Origin: Anthoceros angustus
Taxonomy: Eukaryota > Plantae > Anthocerotophyta
DNA length: 64,000 nucleotides
Assembly (NCBI GenBank): GCA_010909165.1
Contig: VJWM01000326.1
Coordinates: forward strand, 4,664 to 68,663
Direction: 5' to 3'
How positions within the stretch are numbered: the stretch's first letter is position 1; every line of letters starts with the position of its first letter. Of this stretch, positions 1-37,400 are shown piece after piece. The position numbers and the translations under genes were made by a program. Under the pieces are notes generated by a model. The model saw only the letters and a list, made by a program, of their open reading frames with translations. It was not told the origin of the DNA and made no database searches.

Positions 1-1922
1 GAGGGACAGGAGTGCTTGGTGCTTTGCTAAAGGAGGTGCCGCACCACAGGACATTATTGCCGGAAGGAATCCCTCAAAAGATAGGCGGAGGATGTGCGGA
101 GGACTTGCAAGGAGAAGTTGTAGGATTTGAAGTTTGGACCGCGGAGGATGCGGAGATGGAAGGTAGGATAGATCCTACCATGGCGGGAATCCCGCGAGGG
201 TGGGAGGTGTTCCACGGTGGTTTGGGACCCCTCCTCTCATGACAAGACTACGGTGGCGGGAATTAGTCCTACCACGGTAGGAAGTAGTCTACGGTAGGAG
301 CACCTCCTACCACGGTAGGAGGAAAGGAAGTCACGGTTTGGAAGCTCCCAAGAGGGAGATAAGAAGGCAACCGGCCCGTTAGGTGGGCGAGCGGATGGAG
401 TCACGGTGGGAGTTGCCCCAAGTGATGGCGGGGAGCTCATCATAGGGAAGCAAGGGATGTAAGATCCCATGAGCAAGGCAAAGGCCTTGAGTCTCCGGAG
501 GTAAGAAAGGAGACTTGGACATGTTGGAGGAGATGTCATGGGGAGATGTTCAGCAAGGTAGATAGGAGCCGCCAAGAGGAGGAGTTGAATTCTTGAAGAC
601 GGAGGCGGAAGACAAGGACCTACCAAGCAAGGGAAATTGCGGGTAGGCGGCGGAAACCCAGGCGGGGAGGATGTTATGAGGATGGAAGCTCAAGTGGAGC
701 ACTTGGAAAAGAGTCTTGAAACAAGGCGGCAGGAGGCAAACCATCATATTCGGAGAACAAGGCTCTTACCAAGCAATTGGCTCGAGAGGAGAAGGTGGAG
801 CAACTTGCTCACATGGTGCGCATGGAAAAGAAGGAAGACAAGCAAGTGCTGCTAATGGAGGAAAGGTCAAGACGAGAGCAATCTCTGCAAATGAGGCCAA
901 AAGGCAAGTAGGCGCACATGAGCGGGTCATAGCCACAATGAAGATTAGTGACATGGAAAAGGAGCTGGGAGAAATCCGGAGGCTGGAATTGAAGGAAGAA
1001 GAGCTGGAACGGACACATTTTGTCCAAAGATTGGAAATGGAACGAGAAGTCCAGAACGGAATGCACAACTCCCTAGGAGGATAGGGGAGTTGGAGGAAGA
1101 AATGGCAAAGGAGAAAGGCCGTCATGAGGCGGTTGCATATGTTGGCGGTGAGGAGGCGAGATTTGGTGATTATGCCCTACAAGAGATTGATCCGCCAAGA
1201 TGAGAGGACGGAGAATGTGGCTCTCCATGTCAAGGCTGAGTGAGCGCCTTGGGCGAGATGCTTACAAAAGCAAGTGTGAGCATGGAGTATGGCTTGAGGA
1301 TTACGAAGAATTGGAGATGGCACAACAACGATTTGCAGCCCATCTTCACAACAAGGTGCTCAAGGCCACTAACGAGAGTTGTTGCGACTTCTTGAGAGGA
1401 GGATGTTGGGACCTCATGACGATGATAGGGGAGGCCCTCATGCAAGTCCAACCGGAAGCCTTAGACTTGGAGAGTGTCCCAAGCAAGGGGTGAAGACTTC
1501 CACTGTGGAGGGGTGAGGGGAGAAGCTGCAGTGGAGAATCACCCAGGTAAGGAAGAAGAAACACCGGTAGGAACTCCTACCGTGGTAGGAGGACTACCGT
1601 GGTAGGAGGACTCCGTGGTGAGAAGGTCCTACCATGGTAGGAGGGCCGGAAGAAGCGGATTCAAAGGTGCTAGCATGGATTTGACGGCAAGGAGGCGAGT
1701 ACCTTGGCCCTTGCAGAAAGAAGGAAGAGGGGTTGATCTTGCGGGGAATGGAGCAAGAATCACAAGGAGAAGACCAACCTCCTAACATGGGTGCGAGAGC
1801 TCACTTGCTCCACAAGTGAGGAAGAGGAGAAGGCGAGGATGAGCCGGTGGCTAAGAGAGCCGGGCTATTTTATTGGAGGAAGGAACTCAAGATAGGCATC
1901 AAGATAAGGAAGGGATTCATAA
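1..1922 (+). pseudogene. C-terminal half of the LTR-embedded ORF (coiled-coil part), frameshifted
   Basis: Fragments MEAQVEHLEKSLE, MKISDMEKELGEIRRLELKEEELE, LEMAQQRFAAHLHNKVLKATNE; terminal ...HQDKEGDS* motif shared with other copies. Confidence 0.7.
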
Positions 1923-3046
1923 GAAGTCCTTAAATTAGCTTGAAGACATGGGGCAAGATGCCACTTGGGAAGACTTTTCTTTAGAGGAGGAGGCATTAAT
2001 GCTTGTCAGAGAGTGTGTTGACTAGCTAGATAGGAATGTTGGGGAGCCATTAAGGCTCACATAGGTGAATTTGCTAGAATAGAATTTTACCCAAGATGCT
2101 TGGATGTCGAACTTAAAATCGTGAGGATACACTAAAATAAGGAGTAAGGCGGTGCAGGAGGGCGCTGAGGAGGCATGTGAGGACCTCCCTATAAAAGGAG
2201 GAGCTTGTGAAGTAAAATTATCGTGCTCCCATCCTCCCGAGTCCTTCACTTTGTGTGAATTTCGTCGCAAGCCAACGCAGAGGAGAGGAGAAGCGGCGGT
2301 CGGAGTCGGGCGGAGGGCTTGCTCTTTGCGCCGCTAGCTCCCCTTGTGAATGGTTGCTGTGTGAATTGTTTTGCTTTGAGTGTGTGGCGATGCTCAAGGA
2401 ACTCTCGGCTTGAGGGTAGACTGCAGGGAAAGACTCCCTGGAGGTTCTCGCTGTCTGGTACAAACCACATAGCAACCGGCCCAAGGAAGAACTCGTTAAT
2501 TTCCGGACGGACCCAGATTGTGCCGTAAGGCGAGTTGGAATTAATGAGCCAGCAATTGGTGTTAGAGTAGGAGATTGTGGAGGAAGGAAGGGGTAGATGA
2601 GTAGAGAAGAAGAGGCGTTGTTGATTGAGAGAGTTGTGAGGAGGATTAGTGTAGGAAAAGCGGAGGCCAGTGAGCCTAAGGGACGAATCCCAAATCGCAA
2701 GTAAGAGGCGCTCACGTGTGGAGAAGAGTGTCTTAGGAGTAGGGACGGTTGCGGTGTGGGTCGGGGTCCACAGGCGCCCGTGATAGACACTTCTCTAAGA
2801 CGTAACTGCAATTGTGTGGTGTCGTTGTAGGTTGAGGTTTGGTGAGTTCTGAAGCGGCGGATAGCCGTAGAGGAGCGTGAGAGGCGCCTTGTTTAGAAGG
2901 CTGAGGTAGTGTGTAGTGCGGTAGTGACGGATTTCTCAAGATTCGTTCCCCAAGTCTCATGGGACGAAACCCAAGCGTCTGGCAGCAGTGGGATAAGTGT
3001 GGCCGCTAGAGGTGCATCTCGGAGTGCCCGGGGTTTTCCTCCCACA
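1..3046 (+). repeat. Family-A long LTR, 3' ~3 kb (5' part outside window); ends ...TTTTCCTCCCACA, no PBS after it (3' or solo LTR)
   Basis: Colinear with 6100-9189 and 15431-18520; ends in the shared terminus GGGATAAGTGTGGCCGCTAGAG...CCTCCCACA at 3046. Confidence 0.85.
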
Positions 3047-4068: not shown

Positions 4069-7000
4069 GTGTCAAAAGTTTGGGCAACTAGCTTAAATGA
4101 GTTGCAAACAGCCCACTCTTTTGCTAGAATGGTTTGGTGAAGACATGCAAGGAAATTTTTGCTCCTTTTGAGCGGGAGTTGTAGGACCATGGGAAGGCAG
4201 AGGATATGCAGAAAGCGGGTCAAAACGACCTCGGTGAGGAGAAAAGGTAACCTGAGTGGTAGGAGGTGTCCTACCACCGTAGGAGAAACTCCTACCATGG
4301 TAGACGAGGGTAGGAGAGATCCTACCACCGTGAGAATGACCCCTAGTGTTTTGATCACCTACCGGTGTGGGATTAGTAGGAGAGGGTAGGAAGGTATCCA
4401 CCGTGGGAGTGACTCCTACCGTGGTAGGAGAAAGGGAAGCTACCATGGTAGGAGGTGTCCTACCACGGTAGGAGATGGGTTCTAAGGAAGGTAGCTTATG
4501 TTTTAGGCGATAGGCTTGCTATATATAGAGTCTTTTAGTGGACTAGATAAATAGGCCAAAATAGGTAATTAAGAAATTAGAGGCTAATTTTCAGAATTAG
4601 AAATTAGAAAATAGGGAAATGGTATTTTAGTATAAGGAATTAGGAAACTAACATCAACGGTGAGAGGGGACGTGGCACACATCCAAGGGGCAGGATAGAA
4701 TGGTAGTTACTTTTCTAACCCTTGGGTGACTTATAAAAGTGGTGTGCTGCAGGAGGCCACAACTCGAAACTTGAGGAGGCCTCCACGGAAGGCGCCGCCA
4801 CACTCAAGCTTCCCAAGGCCCCCATACAGCCGCGCCCGACGCATCCTGAGGAGGAGAAGGAGGGCGCTCAACAAGGAGGCGGAAATCGCGCCCAAGAGAG
4901 AGGGGAGGAGGAAGAAGAGAAGGAGAAGAAGGTTGGGCAACCCAACACTTGCCAAGCTCGTGAGGGTGCCTAGGAGGGTGGAGCGTGGCAAGATTGCTAG
5001 GAAACCGCAGGAAGGGCTCCTAAATTGCTGGCAGTGTGTAAGAGTCCTGGGGAATTTTGGTGAGCTTTGCAGGAGAAATCGGGGTTTTGGGGACGCCAAG
5101 GTGTAAGGACTGCAGGAGGAGAGCAAGGGGCAAGGACCTTTGAGCTGTGAGCAAGAGCAAATCAGAGGAGGAGAAAACGTTTGCAAGGATAGGAAGTCAG
5201 CCGCAGGAATTGCAGAGGCATCACTTTTCTTCAATTTCTGCAAGTACTAACCAAGGAGGCCATGACCAAGCCTACCATGACCAAGGGGCAAGGAGGTAGT
5301 AGCCAAGGAAGGAGCGTCCACCAAGGGAGGTGGCGCAGGAGCGGGCAAGAGGTCTAAGGAGGATCACCGAGGGTGGAAATTTGACATGCCCTTATTTACG
5401 TGCTGGGCCAGCTATCCTCTAGAGACCTTTCGACTTTCGACCTTGGGCAGCAGAGGAGAATATTCAGCTAGAGTGGGTGTATGGGCGACATTGGTCTTAC
5501 ACCAACCTTGAATTGATAGAGGAGTGTTTTGCTAATCGTGCAGACGGAAGAGGAATTGGCCGCCTTACCGATAGAACGCACGGACGGATCCACGGTGTTG
5601 GATTGTAAGGAGCATACGCATATGGCGGCCGGATAGCGAGGATAGCGGAATCACGTTGATGGAAGGAACGAGCGGAGGCAAGCGTGCATCAACGGCGGAT
5701 CTTCCCAAGGGAGCCCTTACCCTTATGCAAGGGGCATGAAGGCTAAGTCCAAGAACGGTTGGTGACGGACCAAATCTTGGAGCCCAAGTGGAGATTGTTC
5801 ACAAGAATTGTTTTGGGCTTGGTGAGCAATCCAAGGGTGTCATATTTCAGCACTACCTTCCTCCATTTTCTATGGAAGATCACTCAAGGAGCGAAGCGGA
5901 TTGGGGCTCATCATGTATGAAGCATACACCTACCAAGCAAGGGAAAAGTTGCTGAAACCCAACGTCGGATGAAGATAGTCCACGGCCGTGCTATCTTAGC
6001 ACTTATCTAGTGCATTTGTGGGAAGTAGAGGGGCTGCTCACAAGTAAGGAGTTGGATGATTCCAAGCATCCCTTTAACATTGTGTACTTACTGACCGGAG
6101 AGGGACGAGTGCTTGGTGCTTTGCAGCTAAAGGAGGTGAGGGCACCCTCAGGACATTATTGGAAGGAATCCTCCGAAAGATAGGCCGGAGGATGCAGGAG
6201 GACTTGCAAGGAGAAGTTGTAGGGGATTTGAAGTTTGGACCGGAGGATGCGGAGATGGAAGGTAGGATAGATCCTACCATGGGTGAATCACGAGGGTGGG
6301 AGGTGTTCCCACGGTGGTTTGGGACCCCTTTCGTCCTCTCATGACAAGACCTACGGTGGCGATTAGTCCTACCACGGTAGGGAAGTAGTCCACTTGGAGC
6401 ACCTCCTACCACGGTAGGAGGGAAAGGAAGTCACGGTTTGGAAGCTCCCAAGCGGGAGATAAGAAGGCAACCGGCCCGTAGGTGGGCGAGCGGATGGAGT
6501 CACGGTGGGAGGAGTTGCCCACCAAGTGATGAGCGGGAGCTCATCATAGGGAAGCAAGGGATGTAAGATCCCATGAGCAAGGCAAAGGCCTTGAGTCTCC
6601 CGGAGGTAAGAAAGGAGACTTGGACATGTTGGAGGAGATGCTGCGCATAGGGGAGATGTTCAGCAAGGTAGAGATAAGCCGCCAGAGGAGAGTTGAATTC
6701 TTGAAGACGGAGGCGGAGAAGACAAGGACCTACCAAGCAAGGGAAATTGCGGGTGGCGGCGGAAACCCAATGGCGGAGGATGTTATGAGGATGGAAGCTC
6801 AAGTGGAGCACTTGGAAAGAGTCTTGAGACAAGGCAACAGGCAAACAATCATATTCGGAGAACAAGGCTCTTACCAAGCAATTGGCAGCTCGAGAGGAGA
6901 AGGTGGAGCAACTTGCTCACATGGTGCTGGGAAAAGAAGGCGGAAGACAAGCAAGTGCTGCTAATGGAGGAAAGGTCAAGACGAGAGCAATCTCTGCAAA

Positions 7001-9189
7001 TGAGGGCAAAGGCAAGTAGGCGCACATGAGCGGGTCATAGCCACAGTGTGAAGATTAGTGACATGGAAAAGGAGCTGGGAGAAATCCACGAGGCTGGAAT
7101 TGAAGGAAGAAGAGCTGGAAGAACGGACACATTTTGTCCAAAGATTGGAAATGGAACGAGAAGTCCAAGCGGAGAATGCACAACTCCCTAGGAGGATAGG
7201 GGAGTTGGAGGAAGAAATGGCAAAGGAGAAAGGCCGTCATGAGGCGGTGGTGCGCATATGTTGGCGGTGAGGGAGGCGATTGGTGATTATGCCCTACAAG
7301 AGATTGATCCGCCAACCGCAGAATGAGAGGACGGAGAATGTGGCTCTCCATGTCAAGACCGTGGTGAGCTGGCCTTGGGCGAGATGCTTACAAAAGCAAG
7401 TGTGAGCATGGAGTATGGCTTGAGGATTGAAGAATTGGAGATGGCACAACAACGATTTGCAGCCCATCTTCACAACAAGGTGCTCAAGGCCACTAACGAG
7501 TTGTTGCGACTTCTGAAAGGAGAATGTTGGGACCTCATGATGATGATAGGGAGGCCCTCATGCAAGTCCAACCGAAGCCTTAGACTTGGAGAGTGTCCCA
7601 AGCAAGGTGAAGAAACTTCGCACTGGGAGAAGCAAGTGGGCGGAAGGCTGGGAGAGAATCACCCTGTGAAGGGGTAAGGAAGAAGAAACGACCCGGTAGG
7701 AACTCCTACCGTGGTAGGAGGAGTTCCCGTGGTAGGAGGGACTCCTACCGTGGTAGGAAGGTCCTACCATGGTAGGAGATTGTGGAGGAAGAAGCGGATT
7801 CAAAGGCATGGATTTGGCAAGGCGAGTACCTTGGCCCTTGCGGAAAGAAGGAAGAGGGGTTGATCTTGCAGGAATGGAGCAAGAATCACCAGGAGAAGAC
7901 CAACCTCCTAACATGGGTGCAGGAGCAAGGAGCTCACTTGCTCCACAAGTGAGAGGAAGAGGAGAAGCTGAGGATGAGCCAGTGGCTAAGAGAGCCCGGG
8001 CTATTTTATTGGAGGAAGAAACTCAAGATAGGCATCAAGATAAGGAAGGGGATTCATAAGAAGTCCTTAAATTAGCTTGAAGACATGGGACAAGATGCCA
8101 CTTGGGAAGACTTTTCTTTAGAGGAGGGAGCATTAATGCTTGTCACCCAAGAGTGTGTTGACTAGCTAGATAGGAATGTTGGAGCCATTAAGGCTCACAT
8201 AGGTGAATTTGCTAGAATAGAATTTTACCCAAGATGCTTGGATGTCAGAACTTAAAGTCTGACAATAGGATACACTAAAATAAGGAGTAAGGCAGTGCCA
8301 GGAGGGCGCGCCAGGGGGAGGCTGTATGTGAGGACCTCCCTATAAAAGGAGGGAGCTTGTGAAGTAAAATTATCGTGTCTTGCGCTCCCATCCTCCTGAG
8401 TCCTTCACTTTGTGCAGGAATTTCGTGCGGCAAGCCAAGCGTCCGTAGAGAGGGAGGGAGGCGGTCCAGTCGGTGGAGGGCTCTTTCTGGCGCCACGCTC
8501 CCTTGTGAATGGTTCGTGTGAATTGTTTTGCTTTGAGTGTGTGGCGATGCTCAAGGAACTCTCGGCTTGAGGGTAGACTGGAAAAGACTCTGGAGGTTCT
8601 CTGTCCGTACAAACCACATAGCAACCGCCCAAGGAAGAACTCGTTAATTTCCGGACGGACCCAGCAGCCGTAAGGCGAGTTGGAATTAATGAGCCAGCAA
8701 TTGGTGTTAGAGTAGGAGATTGTGGAGGAAGGAAGGGTAGATGAGTAGAGAAGAAGAGGGCGTTGTTGATTGAGAGAGTTGTGAGGAGGATTAGAGTGTA
8801 GGAAAACTAAGGCCTGGCGAGCCTAAGGGACGAATCCCAAACTGCAAGTAAGAGGCGCTCCCTGTGGAGAAGAGTGTCTTAGGAGTAGGACGGTTGCGGT
8901 GTGGGTCGGGGGTCCCGGCGCCCGTGATAGACACCTTGTTAAGACGAACACAATTGTGTGGGTGTAGGTTGAGGTTTGGTGAGTTCTGAGCGATGCAGGC
9001 GTAGGCTGTAGAGGAGCGTGAGGGCGCCTTGCTTGTTTAGAAGGCTGAGGTAGTGTGTAGCTGCAGTGTGTGATTTCTCAAGATCGACTACCCAAGTCTC
9101 ATGGGACGAAACCCAACGCACGAAACGACAGTGGGATAAGTGTGGCCGCTAGAGGGGAATCTCGGAGTGCCCCGGGTTTTCCTCCCACA
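4069..9189 (+). repeat. 5' LTR of gypsy copy 1 (~5.1 kb)
   Basis: Begins ~GTGTCAAAAGTTTGGGCAAC (degenerate TGTGGAACGCAAAAG); ends CCTCCCACA immediately before the PBS. Confidence 0.85.
5262..8059 (+). pseudogene. LTR-embedded additional ORF (~930 codons when frames are joined): N-terminal conserved domain plus coiled coil; frameshifted as read
   Basis: ATG ACC AAG CCT ACC ATG at 5262; peptides shared with all other copies through ...QDRHQDKEGDS* at 8059. Confidence 0.7.
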
Positions 9190-9193
9190 TTTT

Positions 9194-9211
9194 TGGCGCC
9201 GTTGCTTGGGG
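9194..9211 (+). other. Primer-binding site, tRNA-Asp type (Athila-like)
   Basis: TGGCGCCGTTGCTTGGGG 5 nt after the LTR-terminal CA; close to the known Athila PBS TGGCGCCGTTGCCGGGGA. Confidence 0.85.
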
Positions 9212-10386
9212 GACGCTGGAGGAGAAGATCTTGTAAGGAGGTGGAGGGGGGTCCTGAAGAGAAAAGGATCCACGTGCCCGAAGGTGTGCGTGTTCCCTGA
9301 CAACAATGGGAGAGGTTGAGGAAGGCTTGGATGTCTGAGGAGAGGGGAACCATAGGAGGTCAAGAGATCTTGCAAGAGATCTGAGAAGAGCTCCGAGGCT
9401 GGGCCTTGCCTTTTGCCTTGAGGAGGAGGTGATCCACAACTTCCGGAGGAAGGAAGAAGAGGTAGTTGTCTAAGAGCAAGAGGAGGAAGAAGCGGAGGAG
9501 GAAGCACCTTCGAGCCGATCAGTCACGCCCAGCTCACCTCTTGGGATCCCACACCTGGGGAGAACATCCTGGAAGAATCTTTTTGCAAGGACACCCTTCT
9601 GGAGAACTTTGGTTGGAGAATTTACTGCAGGAGAGGAAGGGAATGAGTTCACCTAGCTCATCTGGACCAAGCAACATGAGTGGAGCAGGGGAGGGGATTG
9701 CTGTTTGGATAGTTGTGTGTTGAGGGGTGTGAGCGTGCTTGCGTAAGTCTAGTCGGGGAGGGAGGAAGTAATTTCGTGTAGGAGTTGAGAGGAGATCACC
9801 CCGCCTTTGTCTGCAAGGGATTTGTGAACTGAATGGAGAAATCATGTGTGAAGAAAGCTTAGTTGCTCTGATGTGCAAAGGAAGAAGCGGAGGAGAGAGC
9901 TCTTGGGAGGAAGCTACATGTGCTAACATCTTCAAGGGTTCCGTTGAGGAAGAAGAGGTAGTTGTCTAAGAGCAAGAGGAGGTTGTGCTCACGGACGAGA
10001 GGAAGGAGGTTGTTGCCGAGGAGTTGCTGATCAAGGGTGAGGGTCAAGAATCCGAGCCAGCGTTAATAATTTCAAGGTACATCTTCCGTTCCTGCAAGAG
10101 GAGGACTTTTTCGGCGTGGATTGTTGAGCTCTTCTAGCTCGAGTTGGTCGTCGTAAGAGGAGGAAGGCAAGAGGGTGAGATTTGGCGGTGAGAAGTTGGG
10201 GTAGATCTAATGGTGAGCTTGCAAGGTCTTGATCGAATCGCCCATCTTGCTGCCCTTTCAACCTTGCTTGTTAAGAGGACTGAGGCGCTTGTGTGCCCAA
10301 GTCTGTGTATAGTACATCCGCAGGCATTGTTCGCCGACAGGGGAGTTTCTTGGGAGGTGTGCCACGGTTTGTGGACGCCCTCAACC

Positions 10387-10960
10387 ATGAGTGGAGGAAG
10401 TGGAGGTGGTGGAAGTCGGTCCACCCCAGCAATATGGGAGATTTGGGGAGAAGAAACAAGGTGAAGATGATGAGGCTTTTGTGCAAACTTTTGAACAGTG
10501 ACTCATGCGAATTTGGAAGTCTCGTGGATTGTCTCCAAATTTTCCTAGAGTACTTCGAGGTCATGCCCAGCAGCGGTATAGTCACACGTGTGGGCTGCAT
10601 CATGATTGGGTTGGGATGATTTGAGAGCTGTATCTTTGAACCGGTTTTGTGGCTTAAGCTATGCACATCACACGTTGGTCCGGTTGAGGACTCAAGGAAG
10701 AGGAGGGAGTCTTTGTATGATTACATAGAGGAGAGAGTACCACCACGGCCACCAAGGATGTAGCTTCGCAAAAGCAAGGCCTATGGTATGACCTTTCTTG
10801 ATAAAGGTTGGGAAACTAGGAAGGAGTTAGAGGGAACACATGTAGATCCATGTGCCATAGAAAAATTAGAGCTAGAATGTGGTAAGGTGGTGAAGATTTC
10901 TAAGTGTAGAGGAGATGGTAGAGTTTAAGAAGGTGCGGAAGAGCATGAGAATGCGTTTCA
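10387..10960 (+). pseudogene. gag: gag relic (retrotransposon gag domain) of gypsy copy 1
   Basis: MSGGSGGGGS start; GWDDLRAVSLNRFCG and GESLYDYIE fit the W..L...F..RF / Q...E...DY pattern of Ty3 gag; repeated at 36828. Confidence 0.55.
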
Positions 10961-12689
10961 TTTTCGAAACCGGAGAGCGACTTGAGGCCACGATGACCGA
11001 TTTCGACGAGGAGTTGGTTGCCACGGCCGGGTTGAAGGGGAGGACGTGAGCATGTTGTAGACGGCCTAAGGATTGATCAGCAAGCCTTGCTGCCAGCAGA
11101 GGTCAAATGAGCAAGAAGGGAGCGCGTGTGAAAGGCAACAGGACAACTGGAAATCCGAGAGGGATAAAGGGCGCCAGTATGGGCGCGAGGAGGAGGCTGG
11201 AATGCTCCTCAAGGGTGAGCAGTCAGGAGGGCTGCAAGTGGAGGCCATCACGATGGCAAAGAAAGAAGCAAAACGGACATGGGGCGTTTTGAGTGAGGCG
11301 CCCCACTTGGCGAGGTCAAGCCAGGCGCCATGGGGCCGAGGAGGAGAAGGCCCTAGGGAGGTGGACACGAGGGCGAAGGAGGAGATGCGCCATGAAAGTT
11401 TGAGCAAGCAGGAAGGGAGGTTGGCGATCATGGGGCAATCACTCAAAATTCGCCATGGAAGTGCAGCAAGGCGAGGAGGTCGCCATGGGAGCGATCTGGA
11501 CCTGGACATGAGGCTAGGCCAACAAGAAGGAGGAAATCGGAACTTGGTTGGAGGAGGAGCATGCGGTGCAAAAAACTTGCGCATTGGCAAAGGGAGAAAC
11601 GGTTTTGTGAATGAGGTTGAGCATGTAACAACGACGCCGGGCTGCTGGTAAGCGAGCTAGCAGGCCACGATGGTGGCAAGGATGATGGAGAAATTGCGAA
11701 GAAATCACAATTTGGAGGAAGGAGAAGTGGCACACAAAAATGGTGTCTTGAGTCTGTCAGAGCCAGGGGCGAGGATGGCTCTATGGTGATGTGTATGAAG
11801 GAGGATTGTGGAGAAATCACACCTCAAGATATGCTTGCGTGGAATTGCAAGGAGAGTCGACCAATTCACGGTCGATTTGGAATTGCAGGCAGCAATGTAA
11901 GAGATCGCTGCTGAGCGCGATCTAGGGCTAGACATGAGTCTAGAAGGTCGGGAGATGGTGTACCAGCGATGATGCAGCAGTCCACGACTGCACCGCATAC
12001 TGATGTCGGCGTGGAGAAGCTAGTTTTGTGAGCCGAGTTGAAGGCGGGGTTGTGGCCAGCACCAACATCCACCGGTGAACAAGCTAGATGGAAACAAGCA
12101 AGGCGTGGCTGGCCTAGAGGTTGAAGAGCAAGTCATCGTTAGAAAGGATCCGTGAAGGGAGTTTTGTGAGATGTTGCAACCCAATGAATTGGGGATTGAG
12201 CGAGGAGAAAGGGTGAGCAGTCAAGAGGGCTGCAAGTGGAGGCCACGGTTGGCAAAGGGAGAAGAGAAACGGAAATCGGAGGACTCCCACATGGCGTGTG
12301 TGGGGCGCTTGATGGAGCCTCGGAGTAGGGACGGCTCGAGGATGGTGTGCATGGAAAGGAGCGGTGAAGAAACTGCGATCCAAGGGGCAGGAAAGCAGAG
12401 GGAAAAATTGGCGAATTCATGGCGGGGAAGCCACTTTTTGGGTACGGCATGTCGAGAGTATTGTCGTGGGAGGAGCTCAGCCAGAGCCTAAGGTTATCAT
12501 GGCGGGACCACGCAAGAAGAGCAGTTGGCCTGCGCGTGGATACTGCACCGTCGATGCAAGGAGCAGCGATCCACGGTCATAATGTACATGGGGCTGGCCA
12601 CCCTCCGTGGTGGGCGTAGTAGGAAGTGGCGAAAGTGCATGGGAAGAGGAGGTTAGAACGTGAAGGACTCCCATGTCCACGTTATTGAA

Positions 12690-13330
12690 TGGTGAGGAAA
12701 TTTCTTGGAGCACGGAATCATGCTGGATAGTTTGTCTAGGGAAGGGCGTCTGTCTTTCTCCCTAGAGTTGTGCCTTATTGTCTAAGAGATGGGGTCTTAT
12801 ACAAGCTTGGTTTGGATGAGAAGATCCGACGTTGTTTGGAAGGAAGCTTCTCTTCTTAAAGAAGCTTTGCATGCGTAAGAGGTTGGAGGCCATTATTAGA
12901 ATCACGGTGAAGAAGATCTTAGATCAGGCATTGTGTGGGACAGGAGAAAGACTATATTATTTAACGAATGATGCCCATTGAATTTGAAGTACCTACCTAT
13001 AGAATCATGGAGGATGAGCATGGACAGAGGAGGTCGGAGTTAGACTAGAGTCTTTCATAGAGCATGAGGAACGTGGGGAAGATGCTTTAGAAGAAACTCA
13101 ATCGGGAGCTTAGAAAGGATAGGCATGATGGGAAGTTGAGGAAGCAAGAAGCTATCATGGCGGGGTTGGTTCTTCTATATGATAGCCGATATATGGACTT
13201 CCAGGAAGCTTAGGGAGATGGATGGGACCTTGTGAGGTGGTGGCAGTGTGAGAATGGATCCGCAACGAGTCGGATGGGGATTTTTGCCAACTAGAGTGAA
13301 TGGGTGGAAGGTTAAGTACCTTCACCGAGA
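12690..13330 (+). pseudogene. Fused N- and C-terminal tips of gypsy integrase; catalytic core absent
   Basis: FLEHGIMLDSLSREG, YCLRDGVLYKLGLDEKIRRCL, ITVKKILD, then directly MPIEFEVPTYRI and LVLLYDSRYMDF..L..WMGP (GPY/F region). Confidence 0.75.
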
Positions 13331-13348
13331 TCTGTTGAGGGCAACAAT

Positions 13349-13359
13349 GAGGAGGGGAG
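13349..13359 (+). other. Polypurine tract of gypsy copy 1
   Basis: GAGGAGGGGAG then TA and TGTGG; identical at 39951-39961. Confidence 0.85.
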
Positions 13360-13989
13360 TATGTGGAACGCAAAAGTTTGGGCAACAAGCTTAAATGAGT
13401 TTGCTTTGAAACAGCCCACACTCTTTGCTAGAATGGTTTGGTGAAGACATGCAAGGAAATTTTTGCTCCTTTTGAGCGGGAGTTGTAGGACCATGTCGGG
13501 AAGGCAAGGATATGCAGGAAAAGAAACGGGTCAAAACGACCTCTGGTGAGGAGAAAAGGTAACCTACATGAGTGGTAGGAGGTGTCCTACCACCGGAGAA
13601 ACTCCTACCATGGTGGGGGTAGGAGAGATCCTACCAAGGAGAATGACCTAGTGTTTTGATCACCTACCGAGGAATAGCTCCTACCATGGTAGGAGAGGGT
13701 AGGAGAGATCCTACCACCGTAGGAGAAACTCCTACCGTGGTAGGAGAAAAGGAAAACGCCTACCATGGTAGGAGGATGTCCTACCACGGTGGGAGATAGG
13801 TTTCTAAGGAAGTAGCTTATGTTTTAGGCAGGATAGGCTTGCTATAGAGTCTTTTAGTGGACTAGATAAATAGGCCAAAATAGGTAATTAAGAAATTAGA
13901 GGCTAATTTTTAATTAGAAATTAGAAAATAGGGAAATTGGTATTTTAGTATAAGGAAATTAGGAAACTAACATCAATGGTGAGAAAGGG

Positions 13990-14059
13990 GCCACGTGGCA
14001 CACATCCAAGGGCAGGATAGAATGGTAGTTACTTTCTAACCCTTGGGTGACTTATAAAA
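13990..14059 (+). promoter_or_regulatory. Candidate promoter of the LTR-embedded ORF: G-box palindrome plus TATA
   Basis: GCCACGTGGC at 13990-13999 and TATAAAA at 14053-14059; same pair upstream of the ORF in the LTRs starting at 29760 and 39964, and with a variant G-box (GACGTGGC) in the LTR at 4069. Confidence 0.5.
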
Positions 14060-14591
14060 GTGGGTGCAGTGCTGCAGAGGCCCCTCGAAACTTGAGGAGG
14101 CGGCCTCCACGCCAAGGCGCCACCCTGCTCAAGGCCCCATACAGCCGCACACCGCGTGTGAGGAGGAGAAGGAGGGCGCAAGCTCAGCAAGGAGGCGGAA
14201 ATCCGAGGCGCCAAGAGAGGAAGAAGGAGGAAGAAGAAGAGAAGGGAGAAGAAGGTTGGGGCGCAACCCAACACTTGCCAAGCTCGTGAGGGTGCCTAGG
14301 AGGGTGGAGCGTGGCAAGATTGCTAGGAAACCGTGCAGGAAGGGCTCCTAAATTGTGGTGGTGTAAGAGTCCGGGAGAATTTTGGTGAGCTTTCTCTTGG
14401 GAGAAATCGGGGTTTTGAGGGGCCAAGGTGTAAGGACTGCAGGAGGAGAGCAAGGGCAAGGACCTTTGAGCTGTGAGCAAGAGCAAATCACGAGGAGGAG
14501 AAACGCTTTGCAAGGATAGAAGTGGCGGGGGCAGAATTGCAGAGAGGCATCACTTTTCTTCAATTTCGTGCAAGTACTAACCAAGGAGGCC

Positions 14592-17412
14592 ATGACCAAG
14601 CCTACCATGACCAAGGGCAAGGAGGTAGTAGCTAAGGAAGGAGCGTCCACCAAGGAGGTGGCGCAGAGCGGCAAGAGGTCTAAGCGGGAGGATCGGACCC
14701 GGAGGGTGGAAATTTGACATGCCATTATTTACGTGCTATGCAGGCCAGCTGTCCTCTAGAGACCTTTCAGACTTTCGACCTTGGGCAGCAGAGGAGAATA
14801 TTCAGCTAGAGTGGGTGTATGGGCGACATTGGTCTTACACCAACCTTGAATTGATAGAGGAGTGTTTTGCTAATCTGCAACAGACGGAAGAGGAATTGGC
14901 TGCCTTACCGGATAGAAACGCACGGACGGATCCACGGTGCTGGACCGTAAGGAGCATACGCCGTATATGGCAGGCGGATAGCGAGGATAGCGGAATCACG
15001 CTTGATGGAAGGAACGAGCGGAGGCAAGCGTGCATCAACGGCGGATCTTCCCAAGGGAGCCCTTACACTTATGCAAGGGGCATGAAGGCTAAGTCCAAGA
15101 ACGGTTGGCGACGGACCAAATCTTGGAGCCCAAGTGGAGATTGTTCACAAGAATTGTTTTGGGCTTGGTGAGCAATCCAAGGGTGTCATATTTCAGCACT
15201 ACCTTCCTCCATTTTCTATGGAAGATCACTCAAGGAGCGAAGCCGGATTGGGGCTCATCATGTATGAAGCATACACCTACCACCGGGAAAAGTTCAAACC
15301 CAACGCGGATGAAGATGTCAAGGCCATGCTATCTTAGCACTTATCTAGTGCATTTGTGGGAAGGGCTACTCACAAGTAAGGAGTTGGATGATTCCAAGCA
15401 TCCCTTTAACATTGTGTACTTACACCGAGAGAGGGACAGGAGTGCTTGGTGCTTTGGCTAAAGGAGGTGCCGGCACCACGGACATTATTCGGAAGGAATC
15501 CTCCAAAGATAGGCCGAGGATGCGGAGGACTTGCAAGGAGAAGTTGTAGGGGATTTGAAGTTTGGACCGCGGAGGATGCGGAGATGGAAGGTAGGATAGA
15601 TCCTACCATGGGGAATCCGCTGCGAGGGTGGGAGGTGTTCCCACTGGTTTGGGACCCCTTTGTCCTCTCATGACAAGGACTGGCAGAATTAGTCCTACCA
15701 CGGTAGGGAAGTAGTCCTACTGGAGCACCTCCTACCACGGTAGGAGGAAAGGAAGTCACGGTTTGGAAGCTCCCAAGAGGGAGATAAGAAGGCAACCGGC
15801 CCGTTAGGTGGGCGAGGATGGAGTCACGGTGGGAGGAGTTGCCCACCAAGTGATGAGCGGGAGCTCATCATAGGGAAGCAAGGGATGTAAGATCCCATGA
15901 GCAAGGCAAAGGCCTTGAGTCTCCGGAGGTAAGAAAGGAGACTTAGACATGTTGGAGGAGATGTCTGCGCATAGGGGAGATGTTCAGAAGGTAGACTAGG
16001 AGCCGCCAAGAGGAGAGTTGAATTCTTGAAGACGGAGGCGGAGAAGACAAGGACCTACCAAGCAAGGGAAATTGCGGGTAGGCGGCGAAACCCAATGCGG
16101 AGGATGTTATGAGGATGGAAGCTCAAGTGGAGCACTTGGAAAAGAGTCTTGAAACAAGGCCAGGAGGCAAACAATCATATTCGGAGAACAAGGCTCTTAC
16201 CAAGCAATTGGCAGCTCGAGAGGAGAAGGTGGAGCAACTTGCTCACATGGTGCGCACATGGAAAAGAAGGCGAAGACAAGCAAGTCTGCTAATGGAGGAA
16301 AGGTCAAGACGAGAGCAATCTGCAGAATGAGGGACAAAGGCAAGTAGGCGACATGAGCGGGTCATAGCCACACAGTGTGAAGATTAGTGACATGGAAAAG
16401 GAGCTGGGAGAAATCCACGAGGCTGGAATTGAAGGAAGAAGAGCTGGAAGAACGGACACATTTTGTCCAAAGATTGGAAATGGAACGAGAAGTCCAAAGA
16501 ACGGAGAGCACAACTCCCTAGGAGGATAGGGGAGTTGGAGGAAGAAATGGCAAAGGAGAAAGGCCGTCATGAGGCGGTGGTGCAGCATATGTTGGCGGTG
16601 AGGGAGGCAGATTTCGGGCTGATTATGCCCTACAAGAGAGATTGATCCGCCAACCGCAGAATGAGAGGACGGAGAATGTGGCTCCATGTCAAGACCGTGA
16701 GTGAGCTGGCCTTGGAGCGAGATGCTTACAAAAGCAAGTGTGAGCATGGAGTATGGCTTGAGGATTACAAGAATTGGAGATGGCACAACAACGATTTGCA
16801 GCCCATCTTCACAACAAGGTGCTCAAGGCCACTAACGAGTTGTTGCGACTTGCTGAAAGGAGAATGTTGGGACCTCATGATGATGAAAGGGAGGCCCTCA
16901 TGCAAGTCCAACCGGAAGCCTTAGACTTGGAGAGTGTCCCAAGCAATGGGGTGAAGAACTTGCACTGTGGAGAAGCAAGTGAAGCGGAAGCTGCAGTGGA
17001 GAGAATCACCCGTGAAGGGGTAAGGAAGAAGAAACGACCGTAGGAACTCCTACCGTGGTAGGAGGAGTTCCTACCGTGGTAGGAGGAGTTCCTACTGGTA
17101 GGAGAGGGTCCTACCATGGTAGGAGGGCCGGAAGAAGCAGCGGATTCAAAGGTCGCTAGCATGGATTTGACGGCAAGGGAGGCGAGTACCTTGGCCCTTG
17201 CAGAAAGAAGGAAGAGGGGTTGATCTTGCAGAATGGAGCAAGAATCACAAGGAGAAGACCAACCTCCTAACATGGGTGCAGGGCAAGGAGCTCACTTGCT
17301 CCACAAGTGAGAGGAAGAGGAGAAGTCGAGGATGAGCCGGCTAAGAGAGCCCGGCTATTTTATTGGAGGAAGGAACTCAAGATAGGCATCAAGATAAGGA
17401 AGGGATTCATAA
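14592..17412 (+). pseudogene. LTR-embedded additional ORF, copy in 3' LTR 1
   Basis: MPLFTCYAGQLSSRDLSDFRPWAAEENIQLEWVYGRHWSYTNLELIEECFANLQ; WRLFTRIVLGLVSNPRVSYFSTTFLHFLWKITQGAKPDWG; PCYLSTYLVHLWEGLL; coiled-coil block. Confidence 0.72.
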
Positions 17413-17680
17413 GAAGTCCTTAAATTAGCTTGAAGACATGGGGCAAGATGCCACTTGGGAAGACTTTTCTTTAGAGGAGGACAGCATTAATGCTTGTCAC
17501 CCGAGTGTGTTGACTAGCTAGATAGGAATGTTGTGAGCCATTAAGGCTCACATAGGTGAATTTTGCTAGAATAGAATTTTACCCAAGATGCTTGGATGTC
17601 GAACTTAAAGTCGGCAATAGGATACACTAAAATAAGGAGTAGGCGTGCGGAGGGCGCGGGGGAGGCATGTGAGGACCTCC

Positions 17681-17687
17681 TATAAAA
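17681..17687 (+). promoter_or_regulatory. Second TATA box in the 3' part of the LTR (candidate genomic-RNA promoter)
   Basis: CCTATAAAAGGAG conserved at ~2190, 8341, 17681, ~34245, ~47130. Confidence 0.45.
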
Positions 17688-18902
17688 GGAGGGAGCTTGT
17701 GAAGTAAAATTATCGTGTCTTGCGCCCCATCCTCCCGAGTCCTTCACTTTGTGCAGAATTTCGTGCAAGCGCAACGCAGGTCCGTAGAGAGGGAGAACGC
17801 GGCCGGAGGGCTTGCTCTTTGGCGCCCAGCTCCCTTGTGAATGGTTCTTGTGTGAATTGTTTTGCTTTGAGTGTGTGGCGATGCTCAAGGAACTCTCGGC
17901 TTGAGGGTAGGGTAGAAAAAGACTCCTGGAGGTTCTCGTCGTGCAAACCACATAGCAACCGCCCAAGGAAGAACTCGTTAATTTCCTGGACGGACCCAGG
18001 CTTGTGCGTAAGGGCGAGTTGGAATTAATGAGCCAGCAATTGGTGTTAGAGTAGGAGATTGTGGAGGAAGGAAGGGTAGATGAGTAGAGAAGAAGAGGGC
18101 GTTGTTGATTGAGAGAGTTGTGAGGAGGATTAGAGTGTAGGAAAACTAAGGCCACAGAGCCTAAGGGACGAATCCCAACTGCAAGTAAGAGGCGCTCCTG
18201 TGTGGAGAAGAGTGTCTTAGGAGTAGGGACGGTTGCGGTGTGGGTCGGGGGTCCCCGGCGCCCGTGATAGACACCTTGCTAAGACGAACCTCAATTGTGT
18301 GTCGTTGTAGGTTGAGGTTTGGTGAGTTTACGGGGGCGAGGCTGTGTAGAGGGAGCGTGAGAGGCGCCTTGCTTGTTTAGAAGGCCGAGGTAGTGTGTAG
18401 CTGCAGTGACGGATTTCTCAAGATTCACTGTCCCAAGTCTCATGGGACCCAACGACGACAGGGATAAGTGTGGCCGCTAGAGGGGGAATCACGGGAGTGC
18501 CCCGGGGTTTTCCTCCCACAATGAACTGTGGGTATGTCATCTTCATTAGTAGAGACTGCACTCCTTTTTCCCTTTTTCCACTATCTTCCATCCGCTTGCT
18601 CCTCGATTTGACTGCGATTTCCAGCAACTCCTACTTCTCTGTTTCCTTTCCTCTTGCGCATTGCCCTATTGAGATCTGCTATAATGAGCTCGTTCCTGGA
18701 TGGTCTTTTGCCTTCTTCCATTGGACTTGGGGATCTCCTTCTCGATGACTGGCCAGGCCCACTGCCACCCGTTTTCCTTGATGGCGGTCTTCCGGTACTT
18801 GGTGCCCTCAAAGGTCTATTACCTACATCATCAGCGCGGACAGCCCCAACCATTGTGGATGGGTGACGATGGCCCTGGGATGATGAAGGTTGGACGCTGG
18901 CA

Positions 18903-26535: not shown

Positions 26536-26540
26536 CTGTC

Positions 26541-29760: not shown

Positions 29761-32700
29761 GTGGAACGCAAAAGTTTGGGCAACAAGCTTAAATGAGTTT
29801 GTTTTGAACAGCCCACACTCTTTGCTAGAAATGGTTTGGTGAAGACATGCAAGGAAATTTTTGCTCCTTTGAGCGGAGTTGTAGGACCATGCCTGGAAGG
29901 CAGAGGATATGGGAAAAGAAACGGGTCAAAACGACCTACTGGTGAGGAGAAAAGGTAACCTACATGAGTGGTAGGAGGTGTCCTACCACCGTAGGAGAAA
30001 CTCCTACCATGGTAGACGAGGGTAGGAGAGATCCTACCACCGTAGGAGGATGACCGCTAGTGTTTTGATCACCTACCTAGGAATAGCTCCTACCATGGTA
30101 GGAGAGGGTAGGAAGGTATCCCACAGGAGTGACTCCTACCGTGGTAGGAGAAAGGGAAAACGCCTACCATGGTAGGAGGATGTCCTACCACCGTAGGAGA
30201 TAGGTTGCTAAGGAAAGTAGCTTATGTTTTAGGCAGGATAGGCTTGCTATATATAGAGTCTTTTAGTGGACTAGATAAATAGGCCAAAATAGGTAATTAA
30301 GAAATTAGAGGCTAATTTTCAATTAGAAATTAGAAAATAGGGAAATGGTATTTTAGTATAAGGAATTAGGAAACTAACATCAATGGTGAGAAAAGGGCCA
30401 CGTGGCACACATCCAAGGGCAGGATAGAATGGTAGTTACTTTTTCTAACCCTTGGGTGACTTATAAAAGTGGTGCAGTGCCCGCAGGAGGCCACAACTCG
30501 AAACTTGAAGAGACTACCACAGCAGAAGGCGCCGCCACACCTCAAGCTGCCCAAGGCCCCATACAGCAACGCGCACACGCGCCTGTGTTGAGGAGGAGAA
30601 GGAGGGCGCAAGCTCAAGGAGGCGTAACCGCCAGCGCCCAAGAGAGGAAGAAGGAGGAAAAGAGGAAGAAGAGAAGGGAGAAGAAGGTTGGGCGCAACCC
30701 AACACTTGCCAAGCTCGTGAGGGTGCCTAGGAGGGTGGAGCGTGGCAAGATTGCTAGGAAACCGTGCAGGAAGGGCTCCTAAATTGCTGGCGGTGTAAGA
30801 GTCCGGGAGAATTTTGGTGAGCTTTCTGCAGGAGAAATCGGGTTTTGAGGGACGCCAAGGTGTAAGGACTGCAGGAGGAGGAGAGCAAGGGCAAGGACCT
30901 TTGAGCTGTGAGCAAGAGCAAATCAGGAGGAGAGCAAGGGCAAGGACCTTTGAGCTGTGAGCAAGAGCAAATCACGAGGAGGAGGAGAAACGTTTGCAAG
31001 GATAAGAAGTCGGTGAGCAGGAATTGCAGGAGAGGCATCACTTTTCTTCAATTTCGCAAGTACTAACCAAGGAGGCCATGACCAAGCCTACCATGACCAA
31101 GGGCAAGGAGGTAGTAGCTAAGGAAGGAGCGTCCACCAAGGAGGTGGCGCAGGAGCGCAAGAGGTCTAAGGCGGAGGATCAGACCGGAGGGTGGAAATTT
31201 GACATGCCCTTGTTTACGTGCTGTGCCAGCTATCCTCTAGAGACCTTTCGACTTTCGACCTTGGGCAGCAGAGGAGAATATTCAGCTAGAGTGGGTGTAT
31301 GGGCGACATTGGTCTTACACCAACCTTGAATTGATAGAGGAGTGTTTTGCTAATTTGCAGCAGAGAAGAGGAATTGGCCGCCTTACCGGATAGAACGCAC
31401 GGACGGATCCACGGTGTTGGAGTAAGGAGCATACGCTGTATATGGCGGATAGCGAGGATAGCGGAATCACGTTGATGGAAGGAACGAGTGGAGGCAAGCG
31501 TGCATCAACGGCGGATCTTCCCAAGGGAGCCCTTACACTTATGCAAGGGGGCATGAAGGCTAAGTCCAAGAACGGTTGGCAGACGGACCAAATCTTGGAG
31601 CCCAAGTGGAGATTGTTCACAAGAATTGTTTTGGGCTTGGTGAGCAATCCAAGGGTGTCATATTTCAGCACTACCTTCCTCCATTTTCTATGGAAGATCA
31701 CTCAAGGAGCGAAGCCGGATTGGGGGCTCATCATGTATGAAGCATACACCTACCACCGGGAGAAGTTGCTGAAACCCAACGCGTCGGATGAAGACAAAGG
31801 CCATGCTATCTTAGCACTTATCTAGTGCATTTGTGGGAAGTAGAGGGCTACTCACAAGTAAGGAGTTGGATGATTCCAAGCATCCCTTTAACATTGTGTA
31901 CTTACAGGAGAGGGACAGGAGTGCTTGGTGCTTTGCGCTAAAGGAGGTGCCGCACCACCGGACATTATTGCCGGAAGGAATCCTCCGAAAGATAGGCCGA
32001 GGATGCAGGAGGACTTGCAAGGAGAAGTTGTAGGGGATTTGAAGTTTGGACCGGAGGATGCGGAGATGGAAGGTAGGATAGATCCTACCATGGTAGGAGA
32101 AGGTCCTACCACGGTGGGAGGTGTTCCCACAGGGTTTGGGACCCCTTCGTCCTCTCATGACAAGGCCTACTGGGGAATTAGTCCTACCACGGTAGGAAGT
32201 AGTCCTACTTGGAGCACCTCCTACCACGGTAGGAGGAAAGGAAGTCACGGTTTGGAAGCTCCCAAGAGGAGATAAGAAGGCAACCGGCCCTGCTAGGTGG
32301 GCGAGCGGATGGAGTCACGGTGGGAGGAGTTGCCCACCAAGTGATGAGCGGGAGCTCATCATAGGGAAGCAAGGGATGTAAGATCCCATGAGCAAGGCAA
32401 AGGCCTTGAGTCTCCGGAGGTAAGAAAGGAGACTTAGACATGTTGGAGGAGATGCTGCGATAGGGGAGATGTTCAGAAGGTAGATAGGAGCCGCCAAGAG
32501 GAGAGTTGAATTCTTGAAGACGGAGGCGAGAAGACAAGGACCTACCAAGCAAGGGAAATTGCGGGTAGGCGAGCGGAAACCCAGGTGGGAGGATGTTATG
32601 AGGATGGAAGCTCAAGTGGAGCACTTGGAAAAGAGTCTTGAAACAAGGCAGGAGGCAAACAATCATATTCGGAGAACAAGGCTCTTACCAAGCAATTGGC

Positions 32701-35135: not shown

Positions 35136-35139
35136 TTTT

Positions 35140-35155
35140 TGGCGCCGCTGCGGGA
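35140..35155 (+). other. PBS of gypsy copy 2 (tRNA-Asp type)
   Basis: TGGCGCCGCTGCGGGA after the LTR-terminal CA. Confidence 0.8.
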
Positions 35156-36827
35156 CTTGTGGCAAATTGAAATTTTGAGATTTTTCTTAGCTTGGCATGA
35201 GCTGAGAAGATCTTGTAAGGAGGTGGAGCGGGGGTCTAGGAAGAAGTCTACACGTCCTTGAACTTGTGCGTTGTGAAGGAGGAGCTCCATGCCTCCTGAA
35301 TGATGTGATTTTTGTGTTCCTGCAGCAAGAATGGCGCATGGCAGGAGTTGGCTGATTTTTCTTTAACAACCGGGTTTTGGAGGCTATGAGGATGCTTGCA
35401 GATGTCTAGCAGAGGGAGGGGGAGAGGAGAAAACCATAGGAGGTCACCCCACCATCGCAAGAGATCTAAGAGCGCAAGAAGAAATCAATGGAGGAGGAAA
35501 ACGCAGGTGGTTGAAGAGGAGGTTGTTGCCGAGGAGGAAGAGCTAAGGGCGCTTGAGGAGGAGGCCTTTTGCCCTTGCCTACAAGGGGAGCCAAGTGATC
35601 CAGCAGAAAACGCTCGGAGAAGGGACGAATCCCAACTGCAAGAGGAGGAAGGCAAGAGGAGGAAGGAGGTGGTTGAAGAGGAGGAAGGAGGTGGTTGAAG
35701 AGGAAAGCGAGGAGGAAGCACCTTCGAGCACGATTCAAGTTCAGCTACCAGCACGGGCCTTCTCAACGCTGGACCTTGAGTGGTGGATCTAGCTCAACTC
35801 AAATGTAAAGTGAAGAAGGAGGTGGAGCGGGGTCTAGGAAGAAGAGGTAGTTGTCTAAGAGCAAGAGGAGGGGAGCTTGATAGAATCACTGCTCAGCTCA
35901 CAGTCTTGGGACGCACACCTAGGGGAGACACCATCCCACAACCGTCCCCAATCTTTTGTGCAGGACACCCTTTCTGCAGAGAACTTTGGTTGGAGAATTT
36001 ACCTGCAGGAGAGGAAGGGAGTGTGAGTTCGCCTAGCTCATCTGGACCAAGCAACATGAGTGGAACAGGAGTAGGAGGGGGATTTGCTGTTTGGATAGTT
36101 GTGTGTTGAGGGGAGCGTGAGAGGGCGCTTGAGGGTAGACTGCAGGAGAGGAAGGAGGAAGTAATTTCGTGTAGGAGTTGAGAGGAGATCACCCCGCCTT
36201 TGTCTGCAAGGGATTTGTGAACTGAATGGAGAAATCATGTGTGAAGAAAGCTTAGTTGCTGCTGATGTGCAAAGGAAGAAGTGGAGGAGAGAGCTCTTGG
36301 GAGGAAGCTACATGTGCTAACATCTTCAAGGGTTCCGTTGAGGAAGAAGAGGTAGTTGTCTAAGAGCAAGAGGAGGTTGTGCTCACGGACAGCGAGAGGA
36401 AGGAGGTTGTTGCCGAGGAGTTGCTGATCAAGGGTGAGGGTCAAGAATCAGCCAGTTAATAATTTCAAGGTACATCTTCCGCTCTTGCAAGAGGAGGATT
36501 TTTTGGATTGTTGAGCTCTTCTAGCTCGAGTTGGTCGTCGTAAGAGGAGGAAGGCAAGAGGGTGAGATTTGGGGAGAAGAAATCAATGGAGGAGGAAGTG
36601 GAGGAAGTGGAGGAAGAGCTAAGGGCGCTTGAGGAGGAGGAAGGCAAGAGGAGGGAGTCTTGAACCACGCCCATCTTGCTGCCCTTTCAACCTTGCTTGT
36701 TAAGAGGAGGAGGAGGAAGCTACATGTGCTAACATCTTCAAGGGTTCCGTTGAGGAAGAGCTAAGGGCGCTTGAGGAGGAGGAGAGAGCTCTTGGGAGGT
36801 GTGCCCACATTTGTGGACGCCTCAACC

Positions 36828-37400
36828 ATGAGTGGAGGAAGTGGAGGTGGTGGAAGTCACACACCCAATATATGGGAGATTTGGGGAGAAGAAACGAGGT
36901 GAAGATGATGAGGCTTTTGTGCAAACTTTTGAACATGTGACTCATGCGAATTTGGAAGCTCAACGTGGATTGTCTCCAAATTTTCCTAGAGTACTTCGAG
37001 GTCAAATGAGCAAGAGGAGGAAGAGGAGGAGGAGGAAGGAGGTGGTTGGGATGATTTGAGAGCTGTATCTTTGAACCGGTTTTGTGGCTTAAGCTATGCA
37101 CATCACACGCTGGTCGGCTGAGGACTCAAGGAAGAGGAGGGAGTCTTTGTATGATTACATAGAGGAGAGAGTACCACCACGGCCACCAAGGATGTAGCCT
37201 TCTGCAAAAGCAAGGCCTATGGTATGACCTTTCTTGATAAAAGTTGGGGAAACAGTGTAGGAAGGAGTTAGAGGGAACACATGTAGATCCATGTGCCATA
37301 GAAAAATTAGAGCTAGAATGTGGTAAGGTGGTGAAGATTTCTAAGTGTAGAGGAGATGGTAGAGTTTAAGAAGGTGGTGGAAGAGCATGAGAATGCGTGT
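36828..37400 (+). pseudogene. gag: gag relic of gypsy copy 2
   Basis: Homologous to 10387-10960 (YGRFGEKKRGEDDEAFVQTFEHVTHANLE; WDDLRAVSLNRF). Confidence 0.55.

Follow-up and report, generated by a model that had tools for sequence, protein, structure and literature searches.

The window analysed here, a 64,000-nucleotide stretch of Anthoceros angustus contig VJWM01000326.1, was found to contain two long terminal repeat (LTR) retrotransposons that carry a protein gene inside their LTRs. This architecture is very well supported, and comparison with a diverged subfamily indicates that the LTR open reading frame (ORF) is a real protein gene under purifying selection. Taking the evidence together, we consider it probable that these are non-autonomous Athila/Tat-like Gypsy elements with LTRs of 5.1-5.4 kb carrying a selected gene, that the gene is broken here by assembly error, and that its product would be a nuclear accessory regulator. 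The demonstrated part of this account comprises the termini, the position of the gene between them and selection at the protein level.

LTR termini and the gene between them

Self-comparison of the window identified a repeat of 5.1-5.4 kb present as five copies (A to E; Table 1), which aligned to one another, gaps included, at 86-91%. As the original prediction had stated, the TGTGG start of copies C (13362) and E (39964) was found to directly abut the polypurine tract (PPT) GAGGAGGGGAGTA, and copies B (9189) and D (35135) end in CCCACA, followed by TTTT and then TGGCGCCG. Both elements therefore have a primer-binding site (PBS) after the 5' LTR and a PPT before the 3' LTR. The LTRs are TG...CA terminal direct repeats, in which 1-6 bases are garbled at the 3' terminus of copy E (49336) and at the 5' ends of copies B and D (copy B from 4070 reads TGT-CAAAAG; copy D reads CGTGG). 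The CA/TTTT/PBS junction of both elements agrees with the ATHILA junction, described as the LTR end, an AT-rich spacer of 3-6 bp and TGGCGCCGTTGCC (10.64898/2026.03.20.713144). Copies B and D have this TG start in common, garbled by a few bases, and adjoin host DNA that is unrelated; in a sister Copia, the sequences on either side of element 2 match neighbouring positions, 57941 and 57940, indicating insertion at a single point. With the gene lying between PPT/TG and CA/PBS, and with two independent elements sharing the TG start, the earlier claim that the extra gene is part of the LTR and is duplicated with it was borne out. A repeat scan of the 5-kb unit detected palindrome arrays only and no short terminal direct repeats; therefore the unit is not a nested small element.

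The ORF of copy C starts 1230 nt inside the LTR, and the integrase remnant abuts the PPT, leaving no ORF between pol and the 3' LTR. Conservation of the TATA box at 17680 in the diverged copy would place the ORF in a U3 of 4.3 kb; the U3/R boundary is predicted about 30 nt downstream of this box, and an RNA-like contig of run X3 ends at 17715. In reverse transcription, whatever lies between the PPT and R constitutes U3, and both new LTRs receive it from the 3' LTR. The gene would therefore be duplicated in every round and be retained in solo LTRs. The further proposal of a 'self-contained mobile cassette' was overstated: a solo LTR without PBS, PPT, gag and pol cannot move, and the full elements have no detectable reverse transcriptase (RT). 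Copy A is a 3' or a solo LTR, since no PBS follows its CCCACA. The diverged copy (51018-63373) likewise has no PBS at its 3' end, and the 5' ends of both are missing. Copy A sits within an older, diverged LTR whose 3' end (3047-3720), like that at 63374-63602 (minus strand), belongs to the same group; family members were thus found inserted in one another's LTRs.

Read depth in run X1 averaged 1732 over the ORF and was 1954 at the U5 end, compared with a mean of 358 (maximum 988) over the internal region, giving an LTR-to-internal ratio of 2-5 that reflects depth and is not a copy number. As the ORF resembles U5 in depth and is unlike the internal region, there is a hint that it accompanies the LTR outside the window.

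Protein-level selection was assessed with the diverged-subfamily LTR, whose halves are separated by a Copia element (53108-60136) with a perfect 5-bp target site duplication (TSD), AGATG. This copy retains the order of U3-like region, ORF, TATA box, U5 and terminal CA, and is collinear with copy C from 13855 to 18518 (five segments aligned). Three segments scored far above shuffled sequences, the 5' segment (63373-62628) scored modestly (157 vs 90-121 for the shuffles), and segment 53107-52000 gave an out-of-register, low-score alignment (144 vs 91-104), its collinearity not rising above the shuffles. In three gap-free blocks picked from tblastx output (209 aligned codons, diverged copy vs copy C), substitutions at codon positions 1, 2 and 3 numbered 53, 34 and 120, with a pN of 0.19 and a saturated pS of 0.83. 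Identity was 63-79% in the coding frame and 39-51% in the other frames. Because the diverged subfamily displays purifying selection on the protein, these comparisons, together with the short-read contig described below, identify the LTR gene as real. The 5' end of the diverged copy is lost, so the TG start is seen in the main subfamily alone.

Table 1. Positions of the LTR copies, internal signals and gene spans in the window
Feature	Position	Strand	Remarks
LTR copy A, 3' part	1..3046	+	truncated by window start; terminus CCCACA, no PBS behind
5' LTR of element 1 (copy B)	4070..9189	+	ORF span 5262-8075
PBS TGGCGCCGTTGC	9194..9211	+	tRNA-Asp/Asn type, behind TTTT spacer
Internal region of element 1	9190..13361	+	4.2 kb; leader, gag-like pieces, presumed integrase remnants
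PPT GAGGAGGGGAGTA	13349..13361	+	directly behind presumed integrase remnant; identical tract at 39951
3' LTR of element 1 (copy C)	13362..18520	+	5159 bp, TG...CA
Array of 14-bp palindrome CCTACCATGGTAGG	13604..13793	.	non-coding U3; 6 sites, up to 2 mismatches
Candidate U3-internal TATA box	14052..14059	+	540 nt upstream of ATG; in B, C, D and E
LTR ORF span in copy C	14592..17428	+	many frameshifts; N-terminal domain, PTTVG linker, coiled-coil-like part, basic tail
Conserved LTR TATA box	17680..17687	+	also at 51908 in diverged copy
5' LTR of element 2 (copy D)	29761..35135	+	PBS at 35140; ORF span 31078-33944
3' LTR of element 2 (copy E)	39964..49336	+	rearranged after 44030, internal duplications from 44010; host Copia resumes at 49336
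Diverged-subfamily LTR, 3' part	51018..53107	-	ORF end (~52610), TATA 51908, U5, terminus without PBS
Diverged-subfamily LTR, 5' part	60137..63373	-	AT-rich U3-like region, ORF start (ATG ~62627); upstream end lost

Reading frame, product and proposed origin of the LTR gene

The original prediction spoke of a long ORF within each copy and of a complete gene of ~930 codons. The ATG-to-stop distance was found to be 938 (B), 946 (C) and 956 (D) codons, but 27-46 stops occur in each plus-strand frame across the span, and the longest sense stop-free runs are just 143 (B), 179 (C), 143 (D) and 254 (E) codons, so neither description applies to the copies as assembled. Differences between copies comprise substitutions (1.8-2.7%) and gap events (2.8-5.8 per 100 nt, mostly of 1-2 bases). 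Contig 18 of run X3 (4405 nt) has 3727 bases on 14159-17715 compared with 3557 in the window (~5% more), an excess that would bring the ORF to about 990 codons; anchor chaining across copies gave about 966 codons up to 17402. The true length is likely 970-990 codons. Insertions common to runs X1, X2 and X3 were detected at 16285, 16681 and 17678. None of the listed runs is recorded as RNA; the RNA origin of run X3, which derives from one study, is a guess, and its contigs cover 13079-17715 but not most of the internal region nor 17762-18520, a pattern that is no proof of expression or of a poly(A) site. Because indels outnumber substitutions and the short-read contig is longer, we read the frame breaks as long-read assembly error. 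Thus, the frameshifts in every copy here are likely due to assembly or sequencing, and it is quite probable that the gene is currently intact.

Comparison of fragments revealed a conserved domain at the N terminus (about 270 residues), then a linker in which PTTVG is repeated, a coiled-coil-like part rich in E, K and R (weak KLRAQ match, E 0.011) and a basic AKRAR tail. The transmembrane segment expected of an env-like additional ORF (aORF) was absent, with none of the 1405-1505 19-residue windows per copy reaching a hydropathy of 1.6 (three sense frames, four copies). Natural fragments of 87-254 aa gave no Pfam match to PF03078, PF20167, PF10536 or PF04195 (E up to 1, 0.5 and 10), although a distant member is possible. 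Homologues were found neither for a copy-E fragment among proteins of 208-2000 aa nor for the diverged N-terminal domain among proteins of 119-380 aa, and a search of viral contigs gave no match. The sole match among 1.84 billion proteins, a bacterial-type repeat protein (P0001), was rejected since only a short stretch matched, and one of 117 metagenome-contig candidates, matching over 17 residues inside a phage-like locus, was rejected as chance. An AlphaFold model of an 87-aa fragment (pLDDT 49.6) returned nothing at E 0.001 in Foldseek and is uninformative. The first Atlas query gave leads at 0.85 (104-105 shared features) to a Streptophyta cluster, to PF03078 ATHILA (73% of members) and to PF20167 (87%); the unrelated bacterial clusters obtained at 0.83-0.84 with a second fragment were rejected. 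Kinship with Athila ORF1/Transposase_32 is thus a weak lead from a language model. PF20167 is reported as a relative of Athila ORF1 in PMC11728184.

Sites of the 14-bp palindrome CCTACCATGGTAGG (up to 2 mismatches throughout) number 10-16 per LTR and lie in both the non-coding U3 and the ORF. Copy C has 11 sites, including 15694, 15731, 17049, 17070 and 17110 inside the ORF, vs a mean of 0.04 and a maximum of 1 in 100 shuffles. The U3 array is also visible in short-read contigs. Runs of a 21-nt palindrome unit and high-copy LTR words were additionally observed inside unrelated Copia or internal sequence (29566-29648, 38791-39155, 49528, 50603, 52920-53046 and 55305-55787); these are likely error-correction artefacts, the sister copy differing there.

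We propose that the ORF may be expressed from the TATA box at 14052, its likely promoter, or from read-through RNA, and that the transcript would end in a short R just behind the TATA box at 17680. The product would not be a membrane protein; it would combine a globular domain with a coiled coil and act in trans, either as a transactivator or against silencing, possibly through binding to the U3 palindrome arrays. To move, the elements would depend on RT and integrase supplied by an autonomous partner. This nuclear, trans-acting role in regulation or anti-silencing is a tentative assignment, falling slightly short of an even chance, and draws on an analogy with VANDAL anti-silencing proteins, which PMC11728184 mentions. 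With regard to origin, the simplest route may have led from an Athila-like ancestor in which pol was followed by a PPT, the accessory ORF, another PPT and a short LTR; plus-strand priming would have moved to the upstream PPT and drawn the ORF into U3. An extra PPT is described for the linker of Athila4 and Calypso (PMC2829016), and a PPT-like relic with 2-3 mismatches lies at 17474, 46 nt behind the stop. We would give such a shift to the upstream PPT roughly equal chances of being right or wrong.

Alternative explanations

One alternative retains the architecture as described and takes the protein to be structural or env-like, with a role in particle or RNA trafficking and not in transcription. 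The length of the coiled-coil-like part would suit such a role, and Athila sense aORFs are termed env-like in PMC7264820; however, transmembrane-like windows are absent in four copies, and the basic tail together with the U3 palindrome repeats would fit a nuclear role. We regard this explanation as unlikely, while ranking it ahead of the other two.

A less probable explanation is that the ORF lies in the LTR but is now dead, i.e., selection was ancestral, the ORF is a passive U3 passenger of a non-autonomous derivative, and many of the frameshifts are real. Consistent with this, (i) no copy in the window has an open frame over the ORF span; (ii) more than one copy deviates in 256 of the roughly 4250 columns of the alignment; (iii) the diverged copy is decayed, with in-frame stops; and (iv) frame chaining over the 2.9 kb of the ORF leaves 4 stops and 2 unsupported slips, fewer than the 8 in the 1.2 kb of LTR DNA upstream and the 7 in the 1.1 kb downstream, a comparison without a clear outcome since antisense controls are also stop-poor. 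On the other hand, substitutions between copies are about 2% with gaps two-fold more frequent, the short-read contig is about 170 bases longer, the three runs share insertions at three sites, and the whole ORF is covered by a contig of the run guessed as RNA.

That the true LTR is the last ~1.1 kb, with an ordinary ORF of the Athila type placed before it, downstream of pol, and with 5-kb repeats that are tandem, recombinant or mis-assembled, is very unlikely: the PPT-like relic, the contig rearranged at 44010-49336 with its chimeric end and the unreadable TSDs would favour it, but two elements start at the same TG behind a perfect PPT in unrelated host sites (one splitting a Copia at a single point), no ~1.1-kb copy with a TG start at 17480 occurs among the self-matches, and ORF depth equals U5 depth.

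Apart from the broken frames, several observations weigh against our preferred reading of a selected, intact regulatory gene in the LTRs of Athila/Tat-like elements. A clean 5-bp TSD was readable at neither element: the flanks of element 1 have only ATG in common, and the TSD at the single-point junction of element 2 is unreadable. A single palindrome site lies within 60137-63373 of the diverged copy, which has no match to the 14052 TATA pattern. The contig that holds the window is noisy, with a chimeric end, and the X3 contig entered the analysis by its length and placement. The PPT-like relic is not significant, as 26 sites in the window match with up to 3 mismatches. Database searches with fragments found no significant homologue of the LTR protein, and the Athila/Transposase_32 lead scores just 0.85, a second fragment having led to unrelated matches. 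Lastly, the lineage within Athila/Tat cannot be fixed because RT is absent from these copies.

Lineage, known systems and neighbouring elements

The internal region of element 2 (4.8 kb, 35136..39963, plus strand) is collinear with that of element 1 but has mosaic, artefact-like repeats. Judging by eye from known motifs, we take the pieces at ~10400-10800 to be gag-like, ~12770-12930 to be a zinc-finger-like integrase remnant, and ~12970-13330, which reaches the PPT, to be a C-terminal GPY/F-like integrase remnant. None of the 31 natural fragments searched matched a relevant Pfam family, and tblastn with a Tat-type RT query detected no RT in the internal region; the query recovered the Copia RTs of the window at E 1e-18 or better and also missed the integrase remnant, so its sensitivity is limited. 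The intact gag-PR-RT-RH-IN series of an autonomous Ty3/Gypsy element is lacking. As RT was not detected, the elements are likely non-autonomous Ty3/Gypsy, and their lineage is likely the plant Athila/Tat group, with the assignment to plants resting on the PBS type. No tRNA genes were found in the window. A joint in run X1 (12095-12635) represents a variant that skips 540 nt of the internal region; therefore several deletion derivatives exist. Contigs of run X3 (at 13350, 12662 and 14894-14935) display the same PPT with a different LTR start, a pol-like continuation or a diverged ORF version, so that further subfamilies exist, and perhaps also an autonomous partner.

A protein gene in the LTR is a layout known from a few retroviruses. 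Human immunodeficiency virus nef and foamy virus bet overlap U3. The sag gene of mouse mammary tumour virus (MMTV) is a protein gene in U3, copied to both LTRs and provided with a U3-internal promoter, and most of it lies in U3 (PMC4667437); it differs in being retroviral and encoding an unrelated protein, whereas the ORF here lies wholly in U3 behind a 1.2-kb upstream region. Phrase searches of open-access text found, by title or abstract start, no plant retrotransposon whose LTR harbours a protein gene. Term look-ups in PMC5408684, PMC13570524 and PMC13468544 found nothing on LTR-located ORFs.

Plant extra ORFs are catalogued in two places, upstream of gag (behind the PBS) or downstream of pol (ahead of the 3' LTR), with LTRs treated as non-coding, and Vicient and Casacuberta 2020 place plant aORFs in the internal region (PMC7264820). 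Athila (REXdb non-chromovirus|OTA|Athila) resembles the present elements in (i) its tRNA-Asp/Asn PBS behind an AT-rich spacer, a tRNA-Asp PBS being used by 72% of Athila and 37% of TatII in the REXdb supplement; and (ii) a sense extra ORF (eORF) downstream of integrase, carrying PF03078 ATHILA ORF-1 or PF20167 Transposase_32, the families of the weak language-model lead. In Athila, however, the ORF lies between pol and the 3' LTR, not 3' of the working PPT within the LTR, and the LTR here measures 5.2 kb vs the 1-2 kb default of ATHILAfinder, with no Pfam match and no RT. Non-chromovirus LTRs reach about 5 kb (PMC6317226). The Tat/Ogre/Retand eORFs (PMD or Transposase_28 plus coiled coil; PMC4408406) also combine a globular domain with a coiled coil, and TatII often uses a tRNA-Asp PBS, but the LTR protein has no PMD or Transposase_28 match. 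Sense eORFs of TatII in REXdb are 5' in 23% and 3' in 26% (27 elements), near-equal shares that could hide ORFs in both LTRs. Cassandra terminal-repeat retrotransposons in miniature are likewise non-autonomous plant elements with a gene-derived unit in the LTRs; this unit is a non-coding, 5S rRNA-derived internal promoter in short LTRs. Rice Retrosat2/FRetro3 (Tekay) have LTRs >3 kb and an additional ORF whose function is unknown, but this ORF0 is described as lying upstream of gag-pol, outside the LTR (PMC3485330).

Other features of the window include several tandem partial duplications in copy E (44010-49336; about 0.55, 1.0 and 1.4 kb), which represent real recombination or mis-assembly. 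The Copia at 53108-60136 has 188-bp LTRs and is nested in the diverged LTR ORF; an RT search found no relative of its RT above 63% identity. Element 2 interrupts a second Copia (27500-29760 and 49337-50900) at a point between its integrase and its RT, and a third Copia-type element (19441-26537, minus strand) has 227-bp LTRs that are 1 substitution and 1 gap apart. The contig end (63620-64000, minus strand) has a GC content of 58% and a bacterial look and is joined directly to an LTR end; judging by eye from known motifs, an RTX-like repeat protein presumably ends here and a type I secretion ABC-transporter-like frame begins, and this end is likely a chimeric read or contamination.

A selected gene of ~980 codons in U3 means that the gene is doubled with each insertion and survives the solo-LTR formation that normally disarms elements. 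More speculatively, and with doubt prevailing, a whole accessory gene may have been moved into U3 by the PPT shift such that every LTR, including solo LTRs, would itself express a ~980-residue regulator that binds its own palindromes, and the family could be kept unsilenced by hundreds of solo LTRs that are themselves unable to transpose. Annotation pipelines with an upper limit on LTR length, or with an ORF search confined to the internal region, would overlook such genes. With gene, promoter and candidate binding sites on one 5-kb piece, the LTR would offer a clean test of the Athila/Tat accessory proteins, whose function is left open in reviews.

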